NCBI GenBank assembly: GCA_963719035.1 | Contig: CAVRAO010000002.1 | Coordinates: 736,001 to 800,000, forward strand | From: Methanobacteriota archaeon | Lineage (GTDB): Archaea > Halobacteriota > Bog-38 > Methanoflorentales > Methanoflorentaceae | Direction of reading: 5' to 3' | Length of the DNA: 64,000 nucleotides | Shown: positions 49,501-50,706 of the stretch, piece after piece | Numbering within the stretch: the stretch's first letter is position 1 | How the letters are laid out: every line of letters begins with the position of its first letter | The notes under the pieces: generated by a model | What the model was told of the DNA's origin: nothing | The model's database searches: none | What the model saw: only the letters and a program-made list of their open reading frames with translations | Program-made: the position numbers and the translations under genes

Positions 49501-50706
49501 TAGTGTAGGTGATGTGGTAGTGTAAGTTGGTTATTAGTATTGGTAGTTTTGTTTTACGGTTTGGTGTTACGGTTAGTTTGTTTAGTTTGATGATAGTGTG
49601 TATGGTAGTGTGCTGATGTTGGTAAGGTGTATTTAGTTGGTGGTGGGGTATAAGAAGTTTCAGTATAGTTTGTTGTTGAGAGTGATGAGTGGTGGTGTGT
49701 TGATGGGGATGAGTTTGGTAGTGTTGATGTTGGTTTTTGTGTTTTAGTAGGTGATTTGTAATGTGTTTGGTTTTGTGTTGGTTGAATTTTGGAATGGTAT
49801 ATTGATGATGTTTGTTTTTTTATGGTTTGTTTTTTGGTAATGGAATTTTTAGATTGGTATGTTTGTTAGGGGAGTATTATTATTGGTAGGTAGTAGTTTA
49901 GGTGGGTGTATAGATTTGGTGGGTGTGTGTGGTAGAAGGGGGGTGTTTTGTTTAGAGGAGTGGTGTTGTTATGTGATGTATATGATTGGGTTGTTTCAGT
50001 ATATGTTGTTTATTGATTGGTGAGTTGATTTGAAGGATATTTGTGTTGTTTTTTTAGTATGTTGTGTGATAATATTTATGTTATATTTGTGTGTTGGTGT
50101 ATGGTAATAGTAGGATAGGATTATTGTTTTTTTGATATTTGTAGTAAATTGATTATTAGTAAGTTGGTTATTGGAATGGAGGGGGGTTTTATGTATGGTA
50201 GAGAAGATGAGTAAGTGGTTTGGGTGAATGATTTGTTGGATTGTGTTGTAGTGTTATTGATTTTTTAAGAGTGGGGGTTTATGTAAGTTGTTGTTGTTGA
50301 GTATATAGGTGTTAGTAATGTGTTTGTTTATTGTTATTTTAGTTTTAGATAGTGGTTATGTTGTGAGATGGTTTTGTAGTTGGTGTGTTTGTTGGTGTTT
50401 TTGGTGTTTGTATTGTTGTAAGTTGTTGATTATGAGTTGATGTTTGAGTGTGTGTGTTTGTAAGTTGTGTATGATTTTTTTAGTATGAGTTAGGTTGATA
50501 TTGTTGTGATAGTGTTTGGTGTATTTTAATGGTAAGAGTATGTATGAGATGAGGACGTTTGGTAAGAGGGTTATTATGTATTGTTTTTGTGAGTTTTATT
50601 TTGAGATTTATAGTGAGGAGTGATGATGTTGAGTAAATATATGGAAGAGGTTATAGAGGTAGTGTGTTAGTGAGAGTAGATAGATATGTGGAGTGGTGTT
50701 AGAGTG
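49501..50706 (+). other. Cytosine-depleted tract (6 C in 1206 nt), apparent C->T conversion of high-GC DNA
   Basis: C only at 49557, 49570, 49613, 49661, 49997 and 50556. G is roughly a third of bases by eye. Normal C content resumes abruptly at 50707. Confidence 0.85.
50191..50530 (+). pseudogene. Cryptic XRE/Cro-C1 HTH regulator gene inside the C-depleted tract (3' end uncertain)
   Basis: GGAGG at 50178-50182 and ATG at 50191. Reading T as C/T allows ERGLTQAAVAEHIGVSNASVHRYLSxRQRPRRETALQLARLL, and the TAA/TAG codons become Gln. Confidence 0.65.

Follow-up and report, generated by a model that had tools for sequence, protein, structure and literature searches.

Natural hypermutation of the APOBEC3 type is partial and biased by sequence context. 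APOBEC3-type and bacterial single-stranded DNA deaminases, and likewise bisulfite or enzymatic conversion, change C to T on one strand, within DNA that was single-stranded, and leave sharp edges; the tract described here has the same one-strand change and sharp edges. Chimeric long reads and misjoins occur in long-read metagenome-assembled genomes. In Nanopore R10.4.1 data, substitution errors are mainly strand-specific C-to-T and G-to-A changes (PMC11610603). The DNA analysed here, called the window throughout, is a stretch of 64,000 nucleotides from a Methanoflorentaceae archaeon (GCA_963719035.1, contig CAVRAO010000002.1, positions 736,001 to 800,000 of the forward strand). It contains an 8.3-kb foreign block, made up of a run of 189 A (A189), a tract almost devoid of C and frameshifted actinophage-like DNA, that splits an archaeal O-methyltransferase gene (Table 1). 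Most probably the block arose as an artefact of long-read sequencing or assembly and is not archaeal biology, since it is missing from relatives and from same-strain runs, is dense in errors, and has sister defects elsewhere in the assembly.

Table 1. Coordinates of the split host gene and of the features of the foreign block, in positions of the window.
Feature	Position	Strand	Remarks
Host O-methyltransferase, N-terminal half, cut at 49311	49012..49311	+	Pfam Dimerisation PF08100, E 1.4e-9
A189 run, left junction	49312..49500	+	Uninterrupted; first 3 A could equally be host AAA
C-depleted tract, foreign-element coding DNA	49501..50706	+	6 C/1206 nt; flank-like composition after conversion; codon periodicity
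3′ part of + strand gene cut by junction	49501..49950	+	A-poor, G-rich third positions
19-nt repeat, two copies 15 nt apart, upstream of ribosome-binding site	50144..50177	+	84–89% identity
Start and HTH_3/XRE-like domain	50191..50406	+	GGAGGGGGG 50178–50186, ATG 50191; domain 50266–50406
Unconverted foreign DNA, 65–74% GC, 6.9 kb	50707..57631	+	Phage-like ORFs
ORF in unconverted foreign DNA	50712–51287	+	Starts inside tract by phase
Frameshifted prim-pol/D5 primase-helicase	51707–53826	+	Pfam NrS1-1_pol HBD, D5_N
Serine recombinase	54195–55412	+	Pfam Resolvase
AT, two bases assignable to neither side	57632..57633	+	X5 fits to 57631, host contigs from 57634
Host O-methyltransferase, C-terminal (catalytic) half	57634..58305	+	Pfam Methyltransf_2 PF00891, E 7e-13

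The undisturbed host gene is found in other data. In the public runs X1 and X9, contigs beginning at 57634 have the exact letters of 49289–49311 just ahead of that position, which places the native join at 49311|57634 (…Y L G K E R F…); the X1 junction contig represents this uninterrupted allele in the same strain with 0 mismatches. Three of the 12 genus genomes (G003, G006 and G007) likewise have ~49314–49320 joined straight to 57634–57642. The block itself (49321–57633) was found in 0/20 other genomes, where a 42-nt chance match (E 8e-4) stood alone. With no block in these 20 genomes and the site bridged in X1 and X9, the archaeon probably does not inherit it. The initial annotation had taken the element to be genomic, and that part of its reading goes too far for a block that is rich in errors and has no counterpart in relatives or in the public runs that contain the host.

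The foreign DNA is that of a high-GC bacterial element of phage- or satellite-like type. Relatives of its primase are 58–64% identical, and weak nucleotide matches were obtained to the primase genes of 53 Microbacterium, Curtobacterium and Arthrobacter phages; a primase alignment search returned 80 loci, the closest of them 62–72% identical. Five pieces identical to the block were recovered from X5, a low-depth sediment metagenome run and the only one of four runs compared to carry them. Relative to X5, the window lacks 1 nt at 52596 and another at 57582, both homopolymer deletions. An X5 contig covering 57463–57631 continues for 63 letters that are unlike the host. Since X5 carries this DNA separately and past the junction, we assign it to another member of the community. 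Contigs of the public runs gave no coverage of 49501–51000, where a parent would differ too much from the tract to align. Each of the 14 runs listed contains at most 0.09 of the sampled words, and there are no RNA runs among them.

No target duplication and no terminal inverted or direct repeats were detected at the block ends, and 49000–58500 gave no tRNA, tmRNA or Rfam match. The block starts in the middle of a gene and, lacking terminal repeats, tRNA and duplication, has the properties of a random fragment. Integration by the serine recombinase was considered and rejected, because the left end is intragenic, the X5 DNA continues past the right end, and terminal repeats and a tRNA are absent. 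Retroposition was rejected as well: the A-run lies 5′ of + strand genes, any duplication amounts to AAA at most, and there is no RVT_1 match. A junction formed by an adapter or an unsplit read was discarded because no adapter-like sequence is present and X5 covers the foreign DNA up to 57631. Adjoining the split gene, 46000–48030 is a multi-copy element, of which 46000–47348 is 99% identical to contig 4 (27455–28801) and 47341–48027 is 94% identical to contig 10 (5573–6258).

The tract directly adjoins A189, a run that the initial annotation of this stretch does not mention, at its 5′ end. Its + strand comprises 563 T, 396 G, 241 A and six C (at 49557, 49570, 49613, 49661, 49997 and 50556), a count that bears out the near-complete loss of C with retention of G first reported for this stretch; ~98% of the expected + strand C is written as T. 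The tract is 33% G, 20% A and 47% C+T, and the right flank, at 65–74% GC, has more A than T. As the fractions of G, A and C+T fit those of the right flank after conversion, the tract corresponds to flank-type DNA in which C has been converted to T. The first unconverted C after the tract is at 50707–50708, so that the abrupt return to GC-rich DNA was correctly described. GC skew is 0.92–1.00 over the tract and reaches ~0 by 51050, at most 350 nt past 50707. Throughout the 2.19-Mb assembly, no other stretch has 4 or fewer C per 200 nt, and a skew near 1 is confined to the tract (21,871 windows, genome-wide). Tandem Repeats Finder returned only short two-copy arrays in the tract, in line with the reported lack of tandem periodicity, and a satellite or low-complexity repeat is thereby ruled out. 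RIP-like mutation is also ruled out, because the change is one-stranded and lies outside any repeat. The surviving C recur in repeated 8–11-mers, and four of the six occupy the same position of two repeated motifs (TTACGGTT, two copies, and GTTTCAGTATA, two copies; at 49553–49573, 49657–49667 and 49993–50003). Since the same motif position retains C, C survival in the tract depends on sequence context.

Codon periodicity, as seen in the composition of codon positions, is preserved across the tract. The best phase is constantly pos%3=1 from ~50041 to 50480, which is the frame of the ATG at 50191, and from ~50641 it is that of ORF 50712. Because the latter phase extends upstream across the boundary, the gene to which this ORF belongs starts inside the tract and the conversion boundary is intragenic. 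The first 400 nt of the tract also have a coding look on the + strand. Over 49501–49950 the phase track alternates 2/1/2/1, which may reflect indels or a weak signal; over 49501–49900 the signal is weak and falls short of permitting an indel count. The sampled de-conversion profile gave no homolog of the gene at 49501–49950 among 9,665 ORFs. The proposal that the tract forms the left part of the element is supported by composition, by codon phase and by a frame of ORF 50712 that is continuous with the GC-rich DNA.

The ribosome-binding sequence and the following ATG that had been noted are present. A third copy of the 19-nt repeat lies at 49522–49540, and the copies upstream of the ATG at 50191 may be operator-like. 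The HTH_3/XRE-like domain is readable only when T may stand for C, and the stop of the regulator is unplaceable because each stop codon is ambiguous under this code. For scoring, we used an HTH model of 52 columns made from 29 ORFs of retrieved loci (8/8 members checked are Pfam HTH_3) and a max-choice Viterbi procedure in which each T was read as T or C and the best allowed residue was taken. The frame of the ATG reached 46.5 bits in an ungapped alignment to columns 6–52, and the remaining two frames of the tract 23.4 and 20.8 bits. The 13 single-choice codons contribute 19.1 bits to this score, and 34 of the 47 aligned codons are ambiguous. None of 300 codon shuffles of the tract reached 46.5 bits (mean 25.1, sd 3.1, maximum 37.2), and in silico converted 1211-nt segments of GC-rich loci without known XRE genes did so in 2 of 400 cases (mean 30.2, maximum 46.7). 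Converted true HTH_3 members scored 51–98.6 bits, values that are inflated since these sequences trained the model. The XRE-type HTH originally read under T=C/T thus outscores all shuffles and 398 of the 400 converted controls. The tract is genuine coding DNA with + strand C written as T, and its content is best explained as three parts: the final portion of a gene, then a regulator of XRE type preceded by repeats, then the beginning of the gene that continues at 50712.

The pattern E-x-G-L-T-Q ... A-E-x-x-G-V-S-N of the XRE/Cro-C1 regulators (HTH_3) is also readable in the tract; unlike these regulators, the tract protein is readable only via the ambiguity code. Among the 80 loci, several of the more distant ones (L033, L035, L053, L080 and L081) have HTH_3 genes upstream of the related primase. 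The closest primase relative with flanks (L002, 62% identical) has no XRE gene upstream of its primase; the upstream region (L002:1093–3581) encodes a tyrosine integrase, a 156-aa ORF and an excisionase-like HTH.

Three-letter alignment had been proposed as a means of finding an unconverted parent; no such parent came to light in the assembly, the 80 related loci or the collections scanned. Three-letter blastn against the converted genome itself gave only the self match, and against the 80 converted related loci only short low-complexity matches. A de-conversion profile drawn from 200 samples per frame had 0 matches in 9,665 ORFs (1.0 million aa); the same procedure applied to in silico converted pieces of the primase gave 19–81 matches with E-values of 1e-58 to 1e-10. 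The helicase piece had no relative in a viral contig collection. For ORF 50712, the sole homolog among 5.8 billion proteins is P0002, which is 94% identical and lies on an ENA contig; P0002 itself had no relative in a metagenome contig collection. At all six amino-acid differences between the two, the window has A or T where P0002 needs C or G. Within 50850–51140 of the window these correspond to T-to-C (three times), A-to-C (twice) and T-to-G (once), with P0002 compared as protein only. It is possible that they represent a tail of base damage or errors past the sharp boundary.

The same assembly (G000) contains other defects. On contig 13 there is a second join from host to foreign DNA (59441–65512; L091:2442–8513): a host gene for a hydrogenase large subunit is cut at L091:2441, and foreign DNA then continues to the contig end. 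These 6 kb are 64% GC and contain frameshifted bacterial genes, named from ORF reading as rubredoxin-reductase-like, a nitrate/sulfonate-type ABC transporter and a NarL-type two-component pair. In 10 of the 12 genus genomes the alignment breaks off exactly at L091:2441, and the next 6 kb have no match in any of them. Contig 12 has a run of 116 A followed by 17 G (106267–106399; L001:6267–6399) between a sulfatase gene and the gene for its radical-SAM maturase, both of them native and ridden with frameshifts; over ~6 kb around the run, frameshifts are unusually numerous, although the sequence is native to the genus. In the two relatives that have both genes on a single contig they are 1,360 and 1,463 nt apart, against 173 and 137 nt here. 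Since relatives have ~1.4 kb at this place, the homopolymer stands in for missing sequence. Runs of at least 60 A are present in this assembly only, one of 24 family genomes, at 187 forward and 0 reverse positions, and the tract and both A-runs all lie on the written + strand.

Two further stretches of the assembly were looked at. Contig 6 contains ~800 nt composed almost entirely of C and T (209039–209850; A 7%, G 13%), the other strand of which would encode a low-complexity protein rich in Glu, Lys, Arg and Gly. This stretch could be natural or another artefact; we do not count it as a sister case of the tract, because it may simply reflect a charged low-complexity protein on the other strand. 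A GC-rich block at C12:210156–214808 was set aside, as it has intact long ORFs and the look of an ordinary island.

We put the probability that the conversion is a strand-bound read or consensus error at about 0.5. Under this explanation, high-GC bacterial phage- or satellite-like DNA would have been carried into the contig by one or a few long reads, in a block that polishing could not reach; A189 and the conversion would then be strand-bound errors of a Nanopore-type assembly, with a known C-to-T error mode driven to its extreme in a patch that other reads could not correct. The primase is broken into at least four ORFs, whereas the flanking halves of the host gene are intact, and from this error density, far above that of the flanks, we infer an origin in one or a few reads. 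Three features favor an error of the caller or consensus: the signature on the + strand, the homopolymer next to the tract and the non-random pattern in which C is retained. The platform, the single-read origin and error as opposed to chemistry are likewise inferred. The initial annotation had left biological and technical causes side by side, and with the block absent elsewhere, error-rich, and part of an assembly with chimeric and homopolymer defects, we judge the technical ones likelier. Several points count against this explanation. The host resumes exactly at the next base: nothing is lost, AAA at most is possibly duplicated and there is no adapter, which random ligation or unsplit-read chimeras should not produce. 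The published C-to-T error mode concerns modified motifs and not each C over 1.2 kb. The conversion is also clean, with 440 nt of constant phase and an ungapped domain of 47 codons; one would expect a disturbed signal to corrupt every base, and real U or T explains such cleanliness better. The exact return to the host is the one point that no reading explains by a tested mechanism. We found nothing specific in the literature on chimeras and homopolymers, and a search on uracil in Nanopore reads gave only method papers.

If the cleanliness is taken at face value, a chimeric or damaged molecule could truly have contained U or T in place of C over 1.2 kb that had once been single-stranded, the duplex part being protected; this is the main rival, unlikely although to be taken seriously. 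Sequencing of the native strand would then have been faithful, and the change would be neither heritable nor a property of the archaeon. The conversion affects strictly one strand and ends within 1–2 nt, like a boundary between single strand and duplex, and A and G are faithfully kept throughout. The A or T found in the window at 6/6 of the P0002 differences right of the boundary hints at damage of the deamination or oxidation type, but with the relative known from protein alone they could simply reflect ordinary divergence. That C is retained at one and the same place of two repeated motifs fits a context-dependent caller better than chemistry, and we know of no normal library preparation process that makes A189. 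One-molecule chemistry leaves the exact return to the host equally unexplained. At the other extreme, the tract might be native, unconverted sequence of extreme skew, GRINS-like or low-complexity G+T, with the HTH over-interpreted. This is barely credible: only C and not A is depleted, with G and A fractions equal to those of the flank; the codon phase matches a model of a converted high-GC gene; the frame as written would have many stops, each of which turns into a Q or R codon once T is read as C; the HTH score exceeds those of 300/300 shuffles; and the boundary of the conversion lies within an open frame.

Capture in vivo would fit the exactness of the insertion, which has no target duplication, terminal repeats or att-like repeats. 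A chromosome break in a rare cell or minor strain would have been end-joined, taking up a random foreign fragment whose leading 1.2 kb had been single-stranded and deaminated by an enzyme, with an untemplated A-tail as filler, a course of events that we consider improbable. That one molecule records such a transfer in the act, with a Ku-bearing peat or sediment archaeon capturing a random piece of bacterial phage DNA, exhaustively deaminated over its leading 1.2 kb, via a 189-nt untemplated A-tail, seems slightly less probable again. The fragment starts mid-gene, which marks it as a random piece, since a mobile element would have ends of its own, and its identity to DNA of the sediment run would make any transfer very recent. 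The genome does encode Ku (PF02735, 122.5 bits; contig 11, 57235–57756), but the frame has an internal TAA and is either broken or another consensus error. The same-strain runs contain the uninterrupted allele (X1, 0 mismatches) and no relative has the block; errors are far denser in the insert than in the host flanks, which implies little read support. RVT_1 had no match in the 91%-complete genome, and a search of it with PF00383, PF14437 and APOBEC_N found no dedicated deaminase and no APOBEC_N match. Its one gene of the CDA fold is matched by both PF00383 and PF14437, families that also match in 12 of 14 control genomes. Set against APOBEC-like hypermutation, the tract shows the strand specificity (6 C vs 396 G) but, with ~98% of C gone, not a partial conversion with dinucleotide preference. 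A plain host-to-foreign chimera and a homopolymer defect occur elsewhere in the same assembly, and it is a priori very improbable that a backbone read would catch an in vivo capture.

If the artefact explanation is correct, the locus is a warning, because this public genome would contain at least two foreign bacterial blocks and two long homopolymers, and such defects would be annotated as a split gene, a 'satellite' or horizontal transfer into an archaeon. Before a one-strand C-to-T tract in a genome from a long-read catalogue is taken as the footprint of a deaminase, the reads should be checked. If the chemistry is real and belongs to one molecule or cell, the tract would offer a rare direct view of the deamination of single-stranded foreign DNA and, with the exact insertion, of foreign DNA captured at an archaeal chromosome break.

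Natural hypermutation is partial, whereas the tract is near-complete and in this resembles laboratory conversion. Protein-primed poly-dA synthesis by DRT9 yields a long deoxyadenylate homopolymer, as in A189; its products are described as free protein-primed single strands in bacteria that, unlike A189, are not joined to a chromosome (PMC12483538). The R10.4.1 errors resemble the tract in showing the same substitution on one strand and in surviving polishing; the published errors concern isolated modified motifs, whereas the tract has lost ~98% of its C over 1.2 kb, adjoins a 189-nt homopolymer and ends abruptly (Liu et al, 2024; PMC11610603). As with chimeric reads and misjoins in other long-read assemblies, DNA of another community member is joined to the host here and in one assembly only, and a second such join lies on contig 13. 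Ordinary chimeras have two parts, whereas the join described here has three, and the host resumes at the next base.
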